Shown: positions 34,896 through 63,827 of the stretch, piece by piece
How positions within the stretch are numbered: the stretch's first letter is position 1
How the letters are laid out: each line of letters starts with the position of its first letter
Origin: Balneolaceae bacterium
Lineage (GTDB): Bacteria > Bacteroidota > Rhodothermia > Balneolales > Balneolaceae
Reading direction: 5' to 3'
Length of the DNA stretch: 64,000 nucleotides
Assembly: GCA_034521755.1 (NCBI GenBank)
Contig: JAXHMB010000003.1
Location: forward strand, 503,878 to 567,877
Position numbers and translations under genes: made by a program
The notes under the pieces: model-generated
Told to the model about the DNA's origin: nothing
The model's database searches: none
What the model saw: only the letters and a program-made list of their open reading frames with translations

Positions 34896-34938
34896 ACAAA
34901 ATAGGGTGGTAAGATTCTTCCAATAGAAATGCCCTCGA

Positions 34939-34983
34939 GAACCTGCGTCCGCCAGCCGGCGGATATGAGCCCGACGAGCTACC
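34939..34983 (-). repeat. Chimeric tRNA-fMet-derived motif, copy A
   Basis: gaacctgcg + tccgccagccggcgga + tatgagcccgacgagctacc. The 9-nt and 20-nt blocks are identical to the tRNA gene at 37321..37393. Confidence 0.85.
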
Positions 34984-35236
34984 GGTCGTACTTCTTTTCT
35001 ATCAAATCCCAGATAAACTTCCGCCCTTTAGCCGTCTTCAATTGTTTCTCTCTCCTCATTGCTTCAGCTTTCGTTTCGAACTCTTCGGTATGCACAATTT
35101 CCCAGGGCCTGAATTGAATCGTCCATCCTTTCTTTCCAAGTTTGTTATGAGAAAGCATGCGTGCATCCAGATCAGAAGTGAAGCCTACATATATTTTATC
35201 ATAAGAAGGGGAATACAATGCGTAAACAGTAAACAT
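34979..35236 (-). CDS. Small GIY-YIG nuclease-domain protein (YhbQ/URI-like), copy 1
   Basis: 85 aa, 'MFTVYALYSPSYDKIYVGFTSDLDARMLSHN...EAMRREKQLK' (GIY..YIG plus a conserved R/E). The stop codon lies inside the tRNA-derived motif. Confidence 0.8.
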   Translation of the reverse strand: MFTVYALYSPSYDKIYVGFTSDLDARMLSHNKLGKKGWTIQFRPWEIVHTEEFETKAEAMRREKQLKTAKGRKFIWDLIEKKYDR

Positions 35237-35313
35237 AAGCTCAGAATAAAAAAAGGCCTTAGCACCATGCTAAAGCCTTTTGATAGTGGCGGGGGCATCC
35301 CGAGGAATTGGGA

Positions 35314-35358
35314 GAACCTGCGCCAGCCGGACGGCGGATATGAGCCCGACGAGCTACC
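35314..35358 (-). repeat. Chimeric tRNA-fMet-derived motif, copy B (variant middle segment)
   Basis: gaacctgcg + ccagccggacggcgga + tatgagcccgacgagctacc. Confidence 0.8.
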
Positions 35359-35360
35359 GG

Positions 35361-35609
35361 TCATACTTCTTCTATCAAATCCAGACCAAACTTCCGCCCT
35401 TTAGCTGTCTTCAATTGTTCCTCTCTCCTCATTGCTTCAGCTTTCGTTTCGAACTCTTCGGTATGCACAATTTCCCAGGGCCTGAATTGAATCGTCCATC
35501 CTTTCTTTCCAAGTTTGTTATGAGAAAGCATGCGTGCATCCAGGTCAGCGGTGTAACCGACATATATTTTATCATAAGAAGGGGAATATAATGCGTAAAC
35601 AGTAAACAT
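35361..35609 (-). CDS. Small GIY-YIG nuclease-domain protein, copy 2
   Basis: 82 aa, near-identical to copy 1 (VGYTADLD, REEQLK; a different C-terminal tail). Confidence 0.8.
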   Translation of the reverse strand: MFTVYALYSPSYDKIYVGYTADLDARMLSHNKLGKKGWTIQFRPWEIVHTEEFETKAEAMRREEQLKTAKGRKFGLDLIEEV

Positions 35610-35679
35610 AAGCTCAGAATAAAAAAAGGCCTTAGCACCATGCTAAAGCCTTTTGATAGTGGCGGGGGCATCCCGAGGA

Positions 35680-35920
35680 CTCTGTTAGACTTACCATCTA
35701 TTGAGAATGGGGAAAATCTTACCATTTTTAAAATACCAGCCCACCGGAGACAGGCTAACCCGAGGAAGAGAGTTAGACTCTATGTCCCGAATCAGTCCCT
35801 CCGGTTGTTGGTATTACTCAAACCTAAATAGCATTCTAGCTGAAAACTATGAACAGAGTCAGGTCCGGTAATACCGTGCTGGTAATTAAAACATAAACCA
35901 TTGAAAGATGAGAATTATTG
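35680..35920 (+). ncRNA. Candidate IS110 bridge (guide) RNA region in the left non-coding end
   Basis: Contains cccgagga (35758..35765, identical to the left target flank), tcccgaat (35785..35792, reverse complement of the right flank attcggga) and gttagactc (35772..35780, matching the IS left terminus gttagact at 35684..35691). Confidence 0.4.
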
Positions 35921-36944
35921 ATGTCTACGACAAATCTTAGCAATACAAAATACTACGTTGGAATCGATATTTCGAAAGCAACCCTGGATTGCTGGATTCG
36001 ACCGGCCGGGAACCATCTGTGCTGTAAAAACGAACGCCAGTGGATTTGATCAGCTGTTACAATGGATGGGCGATCAAGGCTGCACGGTGGATAACACCGT
36101 TATGTGCATGGAGAACACCGGCATTTATGGAAAACGGTTGTTGGTGGCTCTCACTGAAGCCGGCTGGCCTACTGCGGTTGAGAAAACCACCGTAACCGAT
36201 AAGGTCGGTCCCGAGCACGACCGCAAAGAGGATGAGTTCGATGCGAGTCTTCTCGCTGAGTACGCGGATCGCTTTGCTGACCAACTTCATATAACCACCC
36301 CACCCGAAGAGGCCTTAGACCAGATAAAGCAACTCTATAGCGAGCGACGTCGACTGGTGCGCCAGCGGACAGCGACCAAAACCAAGCAAACCCAGTCGAC
36401 CCAGCAGCCGCATTGCCTACAACTGCTTCGACACGGATGGAACCGGCAGCTGGAGTTCCTGGACAAACAAATTGAGACCTTGGAGTCCCGGATCGCCCAA
36501 ATTATAGAAGCCCACGAGGGGCTTTGTAGCTATTTTACGCTGTTGCAGAGTATTCCTGGTGTAGCTGAAGTAACAGCTTGGTTATGGTTGATTCATTTTT
36601 ATGGGCAACCAAAGCTAAATCCAAAGAAAATTGCCTCTCGATTTGGAGTAGCCCCGCACACTCACGAGTCAGGATCTTCGGTCCGCGGGAAAACCAGATC
36701 GAGTGGTCACGGGGCCTCTGAAATGCGTTCAACCATGACCCTGGCGGCCCGTTCAGCCAGTACGCACTATGATCGTTTTAAAGCCTATAAACAAAAGAAA
36801 CTCGATGAGGGAAAATGTTGGCCTGTTGTACGAAATAATTTGGTAAATAAATTAATCACCATAATGTGTGCCATATGGAACAGCGGCCAGCCATACGATC
36901 CGGATCACACCTCACGATTTGACCGGGAGAAAAAAGCTGCATAA
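35921..36944 (+). pseudogene. IS110-family DEDD transposase, frame shift near codon ~30
   Basis: ATG 35921 gives 'MSTTNLSNTKYYVGIDISKATLDCWIRPAG', then a stop. The remainder, 'TNASGFDQLLQWM...GVAPHTHESGSSVRGKTR..', is in the 35958..36944 frame. Confidence 0.8.
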
Positions 36945-36971
36945 TACTTGCAAAAGTCATAGCATTCGGGA

Positions 36972-37016
36972 GAACCTGCGTCCGCCAGCCGGCGGATATG
37001 AGCCCGACGAGCTACC
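36972..37016 (-). repeat. Chimeric tRNA-fMet-derived motif, copy C
   Basis: Identical to copy A. Confidence 0.85.
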
Positions 37017-37270
37017 GGTCGTACTTCTTTTCTATTAAATCCCAAATAAACCTTCCGCCCTTTAGCCGTCTTTAGTTGCTTCTCTCTGTTCATTGCTTCA
37101 GCTTTCGTTTCGAACTCTTCGGTATGCACAATTTCCCAGGGCCTGAATTGAATCGTCCATCCTTTCTTTCCAAGTTTGTTATGAGAAAGCATGCGTGCAT
37201 CCAGGTCAGAGGTGTAACCGACATATATTTTATCATAAGAAGGGGAATATAATGCGTAAACAGTAAACAT
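37012..37270 (-). pseudogene. Small GIY-YIG nuclease-domain protein, copy 3, with a 1-nt insertion near the 3' end
   Basis: Same N-terminal 70 aa as copy 2. An extra g (ggaaggttta versus ggaagttta) shifts the frame, so the ORF reads through the tRNA-like motif to 36905. Confidence 0.7.
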
Positions 37271-37281
37271 AAGCTCAGAAT

Positions 37282-37312
37282 AAAAAAAGGCCTTAGCACC
37301 ATGCTAAAGCCT
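37282..37312 (-). terminator. Intrinsic terminator directly after tRNA-fMet; copies also sit in units 1 and 2 near 35249..35279 and 35622..35652
   Basis: Minus-strand hairpin ggctttagca-tgg-tgctaaggcc followed by T7. Confidence 0.7.
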
Positions 37313-37320
37313 TTTGATAG

Positions 37321-37393
<73 letters not shown>

Positions 37394-37424
37394 ATATAAA
37401 TTCATTTATTCATCGCGAACATTT

Positions 37425-37457
37425 GAACCTGCGTCCGCCAGCCGGCGGATATGAGCC
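37425..37457 (-). repeat. Solo truncated copy (D) of the chimeric tRNA-derived motif, upstream of the tRNA
   Basis: gaacctgcgtccgccagccggcggatatgagcc lies 32 nt 5' of the tRNA start, with unrelated flanks. Confidence 0.8.
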
Positions 37458-37585
37458 GGATTTCAACATCAAATCAGACCCGCGATGTAAGACTCCAATA
37501 ATAAGGGTTGACATAGGTACTTGTCAATACTAAATTAACTATTCTTTTCTGAACCAATAACAGATTTAAAACCACTCATATCCTT

Positions 37586-56642: not shown

Positions 56643-59562
56643 ATGACGGACACCGCTACAAAGAATTATTTATACTTCTTATTAATTATTCTATTGGCTG
56701 GGTTCAGCTATCTGGTCATTAATACTATACCTAATTCAAGTGTTTCAAAAACAGCCCGTCTTGGTCAGGATACCCTGCTGGAAGAGAAAAAGGAATCTGA
56801 TAAACTAAGTAAAGAACAAACCAAGAAAGCCCGGAATGAATATTACTTTACTCTTTTAAGAGATCCCAAAACAAATACCATTCCTGATAACATTCGCGCG
56901 CGGGAGTTAAATCATGCTCGCTCTGTTCCTACCCTGCAAGAAGTTAACCGGAGGTTAAAAGCCAAAAATCCTAATTTTAAGCCGGCCCAAGATTTTACCT
57001 GGCAGCTTGCCGGTCCGACCAATGTTGGTGGAAGAACTCGTGCGCTGGGCATTGATCAGCGTGATCCAAGTATTGTAATTGCCGGAGGCGTTTCGGGTGG
57101 TATTTGGCGATCAACTGATAATGGTAACTCATGGACACTTAGAACGCCTGACGCAGAAAACTTTAGCGTATCATCACTTGCCCAAGATCCTACCAATCCT
57201 GATACCTGGTATTATACTTCAGGTGAATTAATCTCCTCTTCGGCTGGAGCCCCGGGTGCTCCCTACTCTGGTACAGGAATATTTCGATCAACTGACAATG
57301 GTATAAGCTGGACAAGAATTCCAGGTACTGAAGATGATAACACCCAGTTTGATTCCCAGTTTGATTATGTAAACAGAATTGCTATTTCACCTACAACAGG
57401 AACGGTTTTTATAGCCAGTAATGGACTTGGTATTTTTCGATCACCAGATGGAAATACATTTAACGACCTTAACACTTGCGCGGGGTGGAATGACATCTAC
57501 ATGCTGATGTAGCCGTAGCCAGCGATGGTACTTTAGCAGCAGTTTTGTCTTCGGTAGACGCTGTTAAAGGAAGCGCTACGAATAATCCCGGTGTATTTAT
57601 TTCAACAGATGATGGTCAAAGCTGGACTGAAATTACGCCGGCTGATTTTCCTTCAGCACATGCCCGAAGTGTTATTACTTTTGCCCCTTCTGATCCCAAT
57701 ATTATCTATACATTGACTAAAAAAGTAGCATGATGTCCGCCAGACAGGTTTCAGCATGTTTGATATCTCAGGAGGACTTACGGGCAACCCGGCTGACTGA
57801 TCAAGTTCTTTGCGGAAACTTACCCAATTTTACTGATGGACCCGTTGGTGGAATGAACCTACAGCAATGGATATAATATGACGGTTAGAGTTAAACCTGA
57901 TGATCCTGACTTTGTGTTAATCGGCGGTACAAATCTTTTCCGATCAACAGATGGTTTTGCCACAGCACCCAGCGACAATTCGCAAAGTGAAAAGAATAAA
58001 TTTTGGGTTGGAGGTTATGCCAAAGCAAATGATATATCCCAATATCCGGAACAACATGCCGATCAACATGAAATTGTATTTGATCCATCAGACCCTAACC
58101 GTGTTTGGGTTGGCCATGACGGTGGGCTTTCTGTTTCTAATGATATTGCAGCTTCATCTGTTACATGGACTGATAAAAACAACGGATATGTGGTCACTCA
58201 GTATTATGATGTTTCCATCCCTGAAAATGAAAATGACAACAGGTTGATGGGGGGCACCCAAGACAATGGCACCACCTTTTTTGAGTTTGACCGGCAACTA
58301 AGCGAGACGTTGGATTCACAAGATATTTCATTTGCCGACGGGGGATACTCATTTTTTACTGACAACTATATTATTGTTTCTAATCAGAACAAATGACAGC
58401 AGAAATAATAACAGGGTAATCTGTTATGGATGTAACCAAGACTTTGGATGAGTCCATTTAGTATTATACACCCTGCAGGATGTCAATACCAGTCTATTTA
58501 TCAACCCCTATGAGATAGATTTTCAGAACGAAAATATTATGTATTATCCTGCTCAAAACGAACTCTGGAGAAATACAAAAATTGATGAAATTACAAATCA
58601 GGAAAATAACGGTACAACCAAAAATTGGAGAGAAGTAGATTCTGCCAAACTGCCTTCCAAATATACGAAATATACGATATCAGCACTTAAATCAACTAAT
58701 ATACCGGCTGACAACCTCTATTATGCAGGCTCGGACCCATCTGATACTGCCGGGAGCGCCTGTAATAAAGCGTCTTGATAATGCCTCAGCAAACTCATCA
58801 GGTCCTGTAGATATTTCAATACCTAATGTGCCAAACGGAGCATTTGTGCATGACATCGCTGTCAATCCCACAAATGGCAATGAAGTCCTCGTTGTAATGT
58901 CGAATTATAATATTGTGGGGCTATACCATTCCGTTGATGCAGGAAACAGCTGGGAAGCTGTTGAGGGCAACCTAACAGGAGACAACAATCCGGGGAGCTC
59001 CAATCCAGGCCCATCAATAAGGTCAGCTGCAATTATCCCAGCCGAAGGTGGGTCCATATTTGTGTTGGGAACCAGCACAGGAATATATGCGTCACAAAAT
59101 TTAGATGGATCTAATACCATGTGGGGCAAAGAATCTGCCAGCATGATAGGTTCCTCTTTAGTAGAAAACATTGATTCTCGTTTTTCAGATGGAGACATCG
59201 CCGTTGGTTCACATGGCCGTGGCATTTTTGTGGGATCTTTCCAAGGCGAAATTAACTTTAATGCTCCTGACAATTCAACTGTTTCCCAGAACTTTCCAAA
59301 TCCGTTCTCAACTTCTACAGATACTAATATACCAGTAAATTTTGCCAACAGAAGTAGGGTCACTATAAATATATATAACATAACCGGAAGAAAGATTATG
59401 CAGCCGGTTATTGATCAGATATATCAACCCGGTCCTACAAATATCCCAATTAATTTTAATTCAACTCATGCAAGTGGAATTTACTTATATCAAATTATTG
59501 CCGAACCCACTGATGAGGGTAAAAAGTTTGTAGGCACCGGCAAAATGACTTTTATCAATTAG
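56643..59562 (+). pseudogene. BNR/Asp-box (sortilin/VPS10-like) repeat protein with a T9SS C-terminal sorting domain, at least 4 frame disruptions
   Basis: ORFs 56643..57512, 57545..57733, 57878..58396, 58539..58778 and 58723..59562. Asp-boxes 'STDNGNSW', 'STDNGISW', 'STDDGQSW' and 'SVDAGNSW'. Tail 'NFPNPFS...GIYLYQI...GKMTFIN'. Confidence 0.7.
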
Positions 59563-61253: not shown

Positions 61254-62162
61254 ATGCAGAAAACCGAAAACATAGCAAATTTCATTCATACTAAACTCGA
61301 ACCTGAAAAGTGGCAAGGGCTTAAAAATTCACATGAAGAACGTATTTCTGAGCTCATTGATGGTTATATGGCCCGACGCCAGGAACAGGCTAAACATCCG
61401 GTGCTGGATTTTTTGTTTGAATACTATGCATTTCGTCCCTCTTACCTTAGAAAATGGTCCCCCGGTTTTGGAGTGCTTCTAAAAGGTGCCACCCGATCTG
61501 ATACACCTCAGCTTAGTGAACTTATATTCACAGACAAAGGTGCATTTCTAAATCCTGACTTACTCCCTGATAACAGGAACAGTGCCATCCAATGGATTTT
61601 AAAAATGCTGAAAAACTCTTTAGAAAAACAACCATCATTTGGATGTTTTGGCATGCACGAATGGGCCATGGTTTATAAGCAAGACCCTGACCAGGTTCGG
61701 CACAACCACCTTCCTTTACGCATGAATAAAGAGGAGTTGGCTGAGTTTGTAGAATCCCGCCCATTGGTCTGTACTCACTTCGATGCCTTTCGCTTTTTTA
61801 CAGAACCCGCGAAGCCAATGAACAAGTTCAAGCTTTCCAGAGAACAGTTTGCAGAAACGGAACAACCGGGATGCCTGCATACAAATATGGATTTGTATAA
61901 ATGGGCTTTTAAAATGTATCCGTGGATTAGCAGTGAACTCATTCGCGAAGCTTTTGAGCTGGCCGTTAAAACACGTTACTTCGATATGAAAGCAAGTCCC
62001 TATGATCTGTCAAGCTATGGACTGGAGCCTATCAAAATAGAAACAGAAGAAGGGAGAGTGGAATATTCAAGAAAACAGATAGAGATTTTTCAAAAATCTC
62101 AGCCCATCAGAAAAAAATTGATCGAACAGTATACATTACTTTCAGAGATTCTAAAGCATTAA
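61254..62162 (+). CDS. Conserved hypothetical protein
   Basis: 302-aa uninterrupted ORF ('HPVLDFLFEYYAFRPSYLRKWSPG'). I do not recognise the family with confidence. Confidence 0.5.
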   Translation: MQKTENIANFIHTKLEPEKWQGLKNSHEERISELIDGYMARRQEQAKHPVLDFLFEYYAFRPSYLRKWSPGFGVLLKGATRSDTPQLSELIFTDKGAFLNPDLLPDNRNSAIQWILKMLKNSLEKQPSFGCFGMHEWAMVYKQDPDQVRHNHLPLRMNKEELAEFVESRPLVCTHFDAFRFFTEPAKPMNKFKLSREQFAETEQPGCLHTNMDLYKWAFKMYPWISSELIREAFELAVKTRYFDMKASPYDLSSYGLEPIKIETEEGRVEYSRKQIEIFQKSQPIRKKLIEQYTLLSEILKH

Positions 62163-62168
62163 GTGCTT

Positions 62169-62197
62169 CAGATCCTGAAACAAGTTCAGGATGACAC
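62169..62197. repeat. Left 29-bp inverted repeat flanking a GIY-YIG ORF
   Basis: cagatcctgaaacaagttcaggatgacac. It contains its own 8-bp hairpin, atcctgaa-acaag-ttcaggat. Confidence 0.9.
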
Positions 62198-62242
62198 TTT
62201 TTGTAAGATATGCAAGGCTTGTAGGTCTTACAAAGAAAAGTT

Positions 62243-62554
62243 ATGGGTTATCATAATCGAATTGGCAAGAATGGGTATGTTTATATCCTTTCAAATTGTA
62301 AAAGAAATATGTTCTATATAGGAGTTACAAATGATCTTGAATATAGAATCTTGCAACATAAGGAAGGGAAGGGCTCAGCTTTTACAAAGCGATATAAGTT
62401 AAAGTATTTAGTTTATTTTGAAGAATACCCTAATATCAAAGAAGCTATTTCCAGAGAAAAACAACTAAAAAACTGGCACCATAACTGGAAAAGAAATTTG
62501 ATAAAAGAATCGAATCCCAGCTTAAAAGATTTAGCAAAAAAATATTTAAAATAA
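62243..62554 (+). CDS. GIY-YIG nuclease-domain protein, a lineage distinct from the tRNA-linked copies
   Basis: 103 aa, 'GYVYILSNCKRNMFYIGVTNDLEYRILQHKEGKGSAFTKRY...AISREKQLKNW'. Confidence 0.8.
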   Translation: MGYHNRIGKNGYVYILSNCKRNMFYIGVTNDLEYRILQHKEGKGSAFTKRYKLKYLVYFEEYPNIKEAISREKQLKNWHHNWKRNLIKESNPSLKDLAKKYLK

Positions 62555-62562
62555 CACCCTTT

Positions 62563-62591
62563 GTGTCATCCTGAACTTGTTTCAGGATCTG
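62563..62591. repeat. Right 29-bp inverted repeat
   Basis: gtgtcatcctgaacttgtttcaggatctg is the exact reverse complement of 62169..62197. Confidence 0.9.
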
Positions 62592-62633: not shown

Positions 62634-63827
62634 TTAAACAGGCAAAGAAATCTTCCCAAAATTGACGCGGCGCCCGATATTCTGTTTTGGATCCATAAAA
62701 AAGCCATCACCTGAAAGCAGTTCATTGGCCAGCACCGCAAAACTAACAGCCTCTTTGGCATCAGGGTTGAAGCCAATCTCTTCAAACGAATAAATCTTTT
62801 GATCACTTAAAAGATCACGAAGCCAATCTACCAGCTGTTGATTATTTATTCCTCCTCCACTTAGATAGATCTCTACTTCAGAATCTTCGGCAATTTCGAG
62901 TATTGCATCAGCCAAAGATTGAGCCGTAAACCATGTAAGAGTGGCTGTCAAGTCCTTTTTCCCTATGTCTATATCATTCTCACTGATTATACTTTCTACC
63001 CAACTCAGATTAAATTCTTCAGGTCCGGTAGTCTTTGGAAAGGGCTTCTTTAGATAAGGGTGAGCTATTAAGTTTTTAAAAAGTTCGGCATTTATAGTTC
63101 CCTCAGCAGCCAACCTGCCACCTTCATCAAAAGGTTTTTCAAAATGCTTTTGCACAGCACTGTTAATTAAGGTATTCCCCGGTCCGGTATCTCCGGAAAT
63201 ACTGTCCCTTTTTGATTCTAATGGCGGTAGAAATGTGAGATTGGCAATACCTCCAATATTAACCAATACACGAGCCGATGAAGTATCTCGGAAAAGCAAT
63301 TCATCTACAAAAGATACCATCGGGGCTCCCTCTCCTCCGGCAGATGTATGTTTTTGACGAAAATCGCTGACAGTGAGGATGCCCGTCTTTTTAGCAATGT
63401 GATCTCCATCTGCTATTTGAAGTGTCGCATTTGGCATGCCTTCTTGCTGATGCTGAATCACAGGAGCATGATAGAGCGTCTGGCCATGGCTTGCAATGAC
63501 ATCCACATCGAAAGGCTCTATTTCCCATTCGTGCAATCTTTCCAATACAAGATCAGCATGATAATCACCCAGCCAGGTATGAGCAAGGCATACCTCCTTC
63601 AAACTTACCTCTTCTACAGAAACAATCGATTTCAACTTGTTACTGACTTCATCCGGATAAGCAACCGTAGCAAAGTGTTCCAGTTCCAGCTTTGTGTCTT
63701 TGCCCGTGCCGGTAATCCGACATAAAGCAATATCCAATCCATCAAGAGAGGTCCCGGACATCAATCCTACAATCATTTTCTGATGCTTGGAGGCTATTTT
63801 ATATATCTGCTCAATAGAAGAGTTCAC
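62634..63827 (-). CDS. anmK: Anhydro-N-acetylmuramic acid kinase
   Basis: 397 aa with 'GLMSGTSLDGLDIALC' and 'NIGGIANLT'. Confidence 0.88.
   Translation of the reverse strand: MNSSIEQIYKIASKHQKMIVGLMSGTSLDGLDIALCRITGTGKDTKLELEHFATVAYPDEVSNKLKSIVSVEEVSLKEVCLAHTWLGDYHADLVLERLHEWEIEPFDVDVIASHGQTLYHAPVIQHQQEGMPNATLQIADGDHIAKKTGILTVSDFRQKHTSAGGEGAPMVSFVDELLFRDTSSARVLVNIGGIANLTFLPPLESKRDSISGDTGPGNTLINSAVQKHFEKPFDEGGRLAAEGTINAELFKNLIAHPYLKKPFPKTTGPEEFNLSWVESIISENDIDIGKKDLTATLTWFTAQSLADAILEIAEDSEVEIYLSGGGINNQQLVDWLRDLLSDQKIYSFEEIGFNPDAKEAVSFAVLANELLSGDGFFMDPKQNIGRRVNFGKISLPV

Follow-up and report, generated by a model that had tools for sequence, protein, structure and literature searches.

Organization of the hairpin-bracketed unit

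The window analyzed here, a 64-kb stretch of the Balneolaceae bacterium contig JAXHMB010000003.1, contains a compact unit of 423 bp in which one small gene for a GIY-YIG nuclease, named ssn below, is bracketed by two inverted hairpin repeats. The unit occupies the spacer between two convergent genes. On its left lies p302 (61254-62162, + strand), which encodes a conserved 302-aa protein and served as the anchor for the comparison of orthologous sites; on its right lies the gene of the anhydro-N-acetylmuramic acid kinase AnmK (62634-63827, − strand). The stop of p302 (62162) and the left arm of the unit are separated by 6 nt, and the AnmK stop (62634) is located 42 nt past the right arm. The GC content of the unit is 31%, compared with 41.6% for the window.

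The two arms form a perfect inverted repeat of 29 nt with 100% complementarity and are 365 nt apart. The left arm (62169-62197) reads CAGATCCTGAAACAAGTTCAGGATGACAC, and the right arm (62563-62591) is its exact reverse complement; beyond the 29 nt, complementarity stops on both sides. With up to 3 mismatches allowed, these are the only 2 copies of the arm in the window, and 100 dinucleotide shuffles of the sequence gave 0 copies. Each arm contains a hairpin of its own with an 8-bp stem and a 5-nt loop, ATCCTGAA-ACAAG-TTCAGGAT (62172-62192 in the left arm and 62568-62588 in the right arm), for which a folding energy of −6.1 to −7.8 kcal/mol as single-stranded DNA (ssDNA) was predicted (z about −3). 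Two strand-asymmetric tags, a GTC 5′ of the palindrome and a C 3′ of it, give the hairpin a direction. The tagged form, GTGTCATCCTGAACTTGTTTCAGGATCTG, is found on the minus strand in the left arm and on the plus strand in the right arm, where it is followed by G (C-TGG, that is, C-YRG), and in both arms the GTC tag is turned toward the gene. On the + strand the left-arm hairpin continues with GACACTTTTT, which makes it terminator-like for the upstream gene. At the Rfam gathering thresholds the arms remained unmatched, the only match in the window being a tRNA-Met.

The sole sizeable open reading frame (ORF) between the arms is the 103-aa ssn (62243-62554, + strand). Coordinates, complementarity and an ORF scan thus confirmed what the first-pass annotation had described as perfect 29-bp inverted repeats with hairpins of their own enclosing only a GIY-YIG ORF.

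The enclosed gene probably encodes an Ssn-type nuclease

The 103-aa product of ssn consists of a single GIY-YIG domain (Pfam PF01541, E 8.4e-16, residues 11-85), and Pfam and NCBIfam name only this generic domain. The AlphaFold model shows one compact domain with a confidence score (pLDDT) of 83. The 11 best fold matches of the model in the PDB are GIY-YIG nucleases (UPF0213, Slx1 and HIGLE), and UvrC entries appear lower down. Of the catalytic residues, Y14, Y25, R35, H39 and E72 are invariant, as is G27, in a 12-sequence alignment that includes a Neisseria protein; N91 is nearly invariant in that alignment and invariant in an alignment of 40 sequences. More than 5,700 relatives were found at E <= 1e-5, the nearest of those with a name being Balneolaceae proteins. 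In IMG/VR, a scan at the protein level revealed no relatives. PADLOC and PHROGs returned no meaningful match for the protein, which leaves a known defense or phage role unsupported.

Among solved structures, the nearest folds are UPF0213/YhbQ-type proteins and Slx1 (PDB 1zg2, 1ywl and 7cq3), with a sequence match to 1zg2 at E 2.5e-8 and a Foldseek probability of 1.0. Both are subfamilies distinct from Ssn. The substrate of Slx1, which works with Slx4, is branched double-stranded DNA, and we know of no association of either UPF0213/YhbQ-type proteins or Slx1 with tagged hairpin repeats. The protein shares its catalytic domain with GIY-YIG homing endonucleases of the I-TevI type, as well as a link to the presence/absence polymorphism of DNA, but it has no DNA-binding domain and no intron or intein context. 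A homing endonuclease was rejected as an identification: the protein is a single domain of 103 aa encoded at an intergenic chromosomal site, and it scores 15.9 bits against TIGR01453, whose cut-off is 56.

The Ssn family (CDD cd10448, GIY-YIG_unchar_3) comprises GIY-YIG proteins with a length of about 94 aa (Chenal et al., Nat Commun 2025, PMC11893778). These enzymes cut ssDNA only, beside a hairpin repeat, which in Neisseria is the NTS, CGTCATTCCCGCGMAVGCGGGAATCYRG, and in general is termed an Ssn-related motif (SRM) (PMC11893778). The typical architecture is NTS-ssnA-NTS, a layout that the authors remarked to be like that of an insertion sequence (IS). Cleavage is governed by the 3 nt located 5′ of the palindrome, and binding depends on the C 3′ of the palindrome more than on any other base (PMC11893778). 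Neisseria SsnA restricts incoming NTS-bearing ssDNA in transformation, and 42% of Ssn homologs have an SRM, as defined by a degenerate pattern, within 500 bp on both sides (PMC11893778).

A tblastn search of a plasmid collection (7.3 Gb) matched two Neisseria gonorrhoeae chromosomes with an E value of 3e-18. The two PLSDB records concerned, NZ_CP119140.1 and NZ_CP119142.1, are 2.17-Mb N. gonorrhoeae chromosomes mislabeled as plasmids. In the N. gonorrhoeae locus (L218:1489-1773), a 94-aa SsnA-type protein is encoded between canonical NTS copies, a minus-strand copy upstream and a plus-strand copy right after the stop, with the tags pointing inward as in the window. In a pairwise comparison, the window protein is 48% identical to this protein over 85 of 94 residues (E 4e-28), and it therefore counts as an Ssn homolog by the published definition (BLAST E < 1e-10 and at least 75% coverage against Neisseria SsnA; PMC11893778).

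The arms are likely counterparts of the Neisseria repeat

Written in the same manner, the repeat of the window is T-GTC-ATCCTGAA-CTTGT-TTCAGGAT-C-TGG, and the NTS is C-GTC-ATTCCCGC-GMAV-GCGGGAAT-C-YRG. Both share the GTC, an 8-bp stem with AT at its start and end, a loop of 4-5 nt, the C and the YRG. Both arms of the window unit have the GTC 5′ and the C 3′ of the palindrome and are oriented with the tags inward, which is the architecture of the NTS. The two systems are further alike in a single-domain GIY-YIG protein of about 100 aa whose gene is bracketed by inward-tagged inverted hairpins, and in the gene-less dispersal of the same repeat family. They differ in that the stem here is A/T-rich (ATCCTGAA) with the loop CTTGT, that one hairpin stands on each side with few other copies, compared with hundreds of NTS in pathogenic Neisseria, and that the host belongs to the Balneolaceae, whereas hosts of the Bacteroidota type are unmentioned in the main text of PMC11893778. 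We conclude that, very probably, the ORF encodes an Ssn-family nuclease and the arms are its cognate recognition hairpins, i.e., SRM corresponding to the NTS. The unit is a new Balneolaceae example of the Ssn/hairpin-repeat family published in 2025, and not a novel kind of element. A literature search on the repeat sequence yielded nothing relevant, and a search for follow-up papers on Ssn yielded none.

Several points weigh against this assignment. The Neisseria comparator was the N. gonorrhoeae protein, chosen by its length and its NTS flanks, and not the N. meningitidis protein CAX49033.1, and membership in the Ssn family was placed by BLAST and motif instead of by a CDD cd10448 assignment. 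The published SRM pattern, HGTCWYN(0-2)YYVSBRHN(0-5)WNVSBRGN(0-2)RNCYNB, has no match in the window; as a control, it found 9 sites in a 3.3-kb Neisseria locus, and over seven Balneolaceae ssn loci (L340 left out) it gave 1 match, in L001, about 1.9 kb from ssn. The pattern misses the repeat of the window because it demands G/C-rich stem positions, and the stem here is A/T-rich. Furthermore, the left arm resembles an intrinsic terminator for the upstream gene, and judging from its sequence it may additionally terminate transcription of that gene. SRM-like hairpins are also rare in Balneolaceae, with about 10 in 693 kb of the genomes compared at the p302 site against about 0.4 expected by chance, and a genome-wide role like that in Neisseria is accordingly doubtful. 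Finally, cleavage of ssDNA by an Ssn protein of the Bacteroidota or Balneolota type is a prediction from its homologs.

For these hairpins, a structural search (GTC, perfect stem, loop and C) was used together with a position-by-position comparison of the architecture. The present unit suggests that the published pattern misses an abundant SRM variant with an A/T-rich stem, whose core is CTGAACTTGTTTCAG.

Conservation of the hairpins around related ssn genes

Ssn homologs with 57-73% identity are encoded in Balneolaceae bacterium YR4-1 (L001), a metagenome-assembled genome (MAG; L002) and Fodinibius salinus (L003). Their genes lie at Alr (alanine racemase)/FKBP in L001 and L002 and at Ddl/RecQ in L003, the p302/AnmK spacer being a third site. 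In all three, the same hairpin, AGATCCTGAAACAAGTTCAGGATGACA, stands on both sides of ssn and is arranged in the same way. A 27-nt core is identical on both sides of ssn in these loci and in a Fodinibius MAG (L144). When the leaders and trailers of six Balneolaceae units were aligned, this core was invariant except for 1 mismatch in one arm of L143 (Aliifodinibius salipaludis), and the remaining non-coding sequence was barely alignable. In L339, which comes from a closer relative, one arm is altered (A for C after the stem) and the core of the left arm is intact.

Between the window ssn and its Balneolaceae relatives, the proportion of synonymous differences (pS) is 0.80-0.95, that is, saturated, and that of nonsynonymous differences (pN) is 0.10-0.24. 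The saturated synonymous sites, the low pN and the unchanged hairpin together indicate that both the Ssn protein and the hairpin are strongly constrained. A hairpin of the form GTC-stem-loop-stem-C was found beside the ssn homolog in 13 of the 13 non-redundant loci inspected, including those of Ekhidna and Flagellimonas and some in which alternating hairpins form arrays; in this count, L008-L017 represent one locus that was repeatedly sampled.

The ssn leader (62200-62234, + strand) contains an imperfect inverted repeat, TTTGTAAGATATGCAAG / CTTGTAGGTCTTACAAA, that might act as a promoter or operator or serve a structural purpose. A TGTAAGG...TCTTAC pair with about 17-20 nt between its halves recurs in the ssn leaders of the Balneolaceae loci L001 (2940-2975), L002, L143, L144 and L339.

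Variation around individual ssn genes was also observed. The ssn unit of L340 adjoins a mechanosensitive-channel gene, and its left hairpin (160-215) keeps both stem halves with a loop that has gained 23 nt. In L341 (2250-3115), the ssn homolog is surrounded by tandem arrays resembling bacterial interspersed mosaic elements (BIME), in which two hairpin types, GTCACCCCGAATTCATTTCGGGGTC and GTCATGCCGAACTCGTTTCGGCATC, alternate. One L341 hairpin overlaps the 3′ end of ssn, which would account for the C-terminal extensions of some family members. The ssn gene of L144 (6959-7249, − strand) has an in-frame stop after residue 77 (TGG to TGA) and represents either a decaying copy or a sequencing error of the MAG.

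The repeat family away from ssn

The repeat is also widely dispersed without the gene. A degenerate form, GTCAYNCYGAACTTGTTTCRGNRTC, was found in at least 120 stretches of IMG/VR, and 1 of the 120 stretches listed contains an ssn-like gene. At the three variable stem positions, 137 of 144 listed copies are fully Watson-Crick paired, with eight compensatory variants, compared with about 18% expected from the column frequencies. This covariation is strong evidence for selection on hairpin formation. The exact 27-mer of the core was found in at least 120 stretches of metagenome contigs with a GC content of 23-60%. Among the 128 copies listed, 6 have an ssn-like gene within 250 nt and 122 do not. 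The listed copies lie mostly outside long open frames and favor gene 3′ ends (14 convergent against 3 divergent contexts), and the majority stand alone or form doublets without a gene. Doublets of inverted copies are found in both orientations. In one of them, with inward-facing tags and a 25-nt spacer, the pair lies inside longer terminal inverted repeats and forms an element of about 146 bp resembling a MITE (miniature inverted-repeat transposable element), of which copies in L225 (10600-10740), L228 (3000-3140), L272 (9180-9320) and L279 (13150-13290) are 92-97% identical within unrelated flanks. Solo palindromes and gene-less doublets, the forms for which the first-pass annotation had proposed a search, thus exist in other genomes and metagenomes.

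The dispersal raises the question of whether the arms are ordinary terminators or a generic repetitive extragenic palindrome (REP) at convergent gene ends, between which the nuclease gene lies by accident. The left hairpin with its T-run scores as terminator-like, and the preference for gene 3′ ends, the 122 copies away from ssn and the other hairpins that occupy the p302/AnmK spacer in some relatives would all fit such an origin. However, the same 27-mer brackets ssn at unrelated loci despite the synonymous saturation. Three of the 10 SRM-like hairpins of the Balneolaceae comparison directly flank ssn (in L143 and L144), and one more, in L175, is about 200 nt away from a partial ssn-like match. 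A T-run accompanies the left arm only, the right arm having none on either strand, and the GTC and C tags are kept whatever the direction of transcription; for these two reasons the terminator-only explanation was rejected. The Neisseria homolog, moreover, binds and cuts beside the equivalent motif (PMC11893778). Collectively, an accidental enclosure of the gene is extremely improbable. The repeat is indeed common, as envisaged in the first-pass annotation as a possible objection, but it is not unlinked to GIY-YIG genes: a hairpin stands next to every ssn gene inspected, which indicates that the association is real even though the repeat is also a common REP-like sequence.

Occupied, empty and inverted sites between p302 and AnmK

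To place the unit in its genomic context, 80 p302-bearing loci from species-representative genomes (GTDB) were compared, the best p302 being 68% identical to that of the window. The p302 protein has no Pfam or NCBIfam match. Its relatives (45-68% identity) occur in Balneolaceae, Rhodothermales, MAGs labeled as Myxococcota, Nonomuraea and Micromonospora, and in Balneolaceae the gene is usually convergent with AnmK. Gene order is widely conserved: thioredoxin-like, UbiA-like and p302 are followed by the convergent AnmK. Among the 40 loci that have p302 as well as AnmK, the spacer between them has a median of 37 nt, often with overlapping genes, and mostly carries no insert. The corresponding spacer of the window measures 471 nt, and the 423-bp unit is therefore an insertion relative to most relatives.

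A unit was found beside p302 in L143 and L144 and beside AnmK in L339, whose Ssn is 86% identical over 74% of the query in a database search. On the p302 tree, the occupied sites are scattered. In L142, whose flanks are 83-85% identical at the nucleotide level to those of its sister L144, the site is empty with no leftover hairpin. No direct repeat abuts the arms, and a target-site duplication was sought in the window and in the comparison of L144 with L142 and was not found. In L145 (6870-12300), a LysR-DabB-DabA block (inorganic carbon transporter) takes the place that the ssn unit occupies in the sister L143. The 3′ end of p302 appears to be a rearrangement hot spot. In another Balneolaceae genome, L161 (6897-6990), two hairpins of an SRM variant with a G/C stem, GTCATCCCGGGCCTGACCCGGGATC, form a doublet without a gene that lies precisely in the p302/AnmK spacer.

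The interior of the unit is inverted relative to the window in L339 (1050-1535), L143 (6893-7350) and L144 (6905-7355), with co-oriented flanks and with breakpoints inside the arms. Most simply, the identical arms recombined with each other and thereby inverted the interior; re-insertion at the same point is a conceivable alternative. Such an inversion is absent from the account of the Neisseria system in PMC11893778. With perfectly identical arms, the unit might be an invertible cassette, in which the arms recombine, perhaps aided by Ssn nicking opposite strands, and the gene is flipped in the manner of a regulated switch. A single inversion event between lineages nevertheless suffices to explain the three relatives, and no recombinase gene adjoins the unit. 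In addition, the flanking genes converge and the leader moves with ssn, and either orientation places ssn downstream of a co-directional gene, which leaves no obvious on/off logic. A regulated switch is therefore a very unlikely function of the arms.

The divergence of the unit was compared with that of its neighbors. The L339 unit is 78% identical to that of the window at the nucleotide level and AnmK is 75% identical, and in L143 and L144 the Ssn protein is 69% identical and p302 63-64%. The unit has thus diverged roughly in step with its neighbors at the p302 site, which fits a long vertical residence with losses.

These data bear on whether the unit is an autonomous transposable element, in which the nuclease would recognize the hairpins at the ends and thereby cause the unit and the gene-less doublets to be excised and inserted, as a GIY-YIG analog of IS200/IS605 or of the REP-associated tyrosine transposases (RAYT) and their REP doublets (REPIN). 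Homologous units at the three chromosomal sites (Alr/FKBP, Ddl/RecQ and p302/AnmK), the difference between the close sisters L144 and L142, the patchy presence on the p302 tree, the dispersed doublets of about 146 bp in unrelated flanks, the low GC content, the missing target-site duplication, as in IS200/IS605, and the IS-like architecture noted for Neisseria (PMC11893778) all speak for mobility. Against it stand the single copy in 64 kb, the divergence of the unit about as great as that of its neighbors, and the finding of no identical multi-copy ssn at several loci, proteins on many contigs having proved to be one locus resampled. In single-strand peel-and-paste elements, both ends are cut on one strand, whereas the arms here are inverted. 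Moreover, GIY-YIG enzymes hydrolyze DNA, and we know of neither a covalent intermediate nor a strand-transfer activity for them, which counts against transposition. On balance, autonomous transposition of the unit is unlikely, and with one copy in 64 kb, no target-site duplication, rare hairpins and co-divergence with the flanks, the autonomous mobile unit proposed in the first-pass annotation was not borne out. Its comparison with a MITE or REP-type element held for the REP part, and what is supported is a pair of REP-type hairpins with a nuclease gene in the middle. A MITE was rejected: a conserved protein is encoded within the unit, direct repeats next to the arms and a target-site duplication are missing, and the window has a single copy.

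A related idea is that Ssn itself mobilizes the unit and the gene-less doublets and represents an unrecognized class of ssDNA transposon built on a GIY-YIG hydrolase, analogous to RAYT/REPIN. We regard this as quite unlikely. If it were true, the Balneolaceae units, with one hairpin on each side, would be the minimal autonomous form, and the flipping of the interior would likewise follow from nicks that fall just inside the arms, one on each strand.

Predicted action of Ssn and comparison with known systems

For the preferred assignment as an Ssn nuclease with its recognition hairpins, a mode of action may be proposed by analogy with Neisseria SsnA. When the DNA becomes single-stranded, as lagging-strand template, as incoming transforming or conjugating DNA or during repair, each arm would fold into its 8-bp hairpin. 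Ssn would bind both this hairpin and the C that immediately follows it on the 3′ side, and its cut, made only in the strand with the GTC, would fall a few nt 5′ of that tag. The tags point inward, and the predicted cuts would thus lie just inside the arms on opposite strands, near 62555-62564 on the top strand and near 62198-62207 on the bottom strand. The identical arms would also let the interior flip by recombination. Site-specific ssDNA cleavage is predicted from the homologous enzyme, and so is a cellular role in the control of incoming ssDNA or in genome dynamics. The arrangement resembles the REP/RAYT systems: one nuclease gene of long residence lies between hairpins of its own, and the same hairpin family is scattered in other genomes as solo copies and gene-less doublets. 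A largely self-maintaining pair of gene and site, similar to REP/RAYT, is a better analogy than a genome-wide role.

The unit resembles REP/REPIN-RAYT (TnpA-REP) in that a single-copy gene, apparently inherited vertically with losses, is flanked by inverted short hairpin repeats, and in the existence of solo copies, inverted doublets with short spacers and BIME-like arrays. The enzyme here, however, is a GIY-YIG hydrolase and not an HUH/Y1 transposase, and the tag is GTC...C instead of GTAG or CGTC. With IS200/IS605, the unit shares the lack of a target-site duplication and subterminal hairpins of a kind recognized as ssDNA. In contrast to those elements, it has no TnpA (Y1) or TnpB gene, the GIY-YIG ORF being the only one, its hairpins are inverted and not direct, and no multi-copy identical elements carrying the gene were found. 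Membership in IS200/IS605 was rejected on account of the missing TnpA and TnpB and the inverted hairpins.

The Ssn/hairpin system, so far studied in Neisseria and Wolbachia, is hereby extended to Balneolaceae. New with respect to the published systems are the A/T-stem variant of the SRM, the layout of one hairpin per side with clean empty sites, and the inverted interior in three relatives. This minimal layout, together with the empty orthologous sites, the inverted interior and the gene-less doublets, provides a clean system for the question of whether Ssn genes are domesticated or selfish. Such enzymes are under development as site-specific ssDNA cutters, and this protein, paired with a 27-nt site that is fully conserved, is a ready-made candidate for a new specificity.

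Other GIY-YIG genes and further features of the window

Three other GIY-YIG ORFs of 82-121 aa (34979-35236, 35361-35609 and 36905-37270, all on the − strand) belong to a different subfamily. They are 34-35% identical to ssn over 65 residues, in agreement with the separate lineage that the first-pass annotation had assigned to the ssn product, and at most 38% identical to the N. gonorrhoeae SsnA-type protein over 64 residues. The region from 34937 to 37460 contains three direct repeats of about 300 nt, each with one of the GIY-YIG ORFs, and a 36-nt sequence repeated four times; no GTC-tagged hairpins were found in it. The three copies had been described as linked to tRNAs. The three ORFs are present, and one genuine tRNA, a tRNA-Met (37320-37393), was detected near the repeats. 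An ORF for an IS110-family transposase (35958-36944) lies between GIY-YIG copies 2 and 3. Elsewhere in the window, an ORF at 58723-59562 encodes a C-terminal sorting domain of type IX secretion (PF18962), with a score slightly under the curated cut-off, which fits a host of the Bacteroidota-related (FCB) group.

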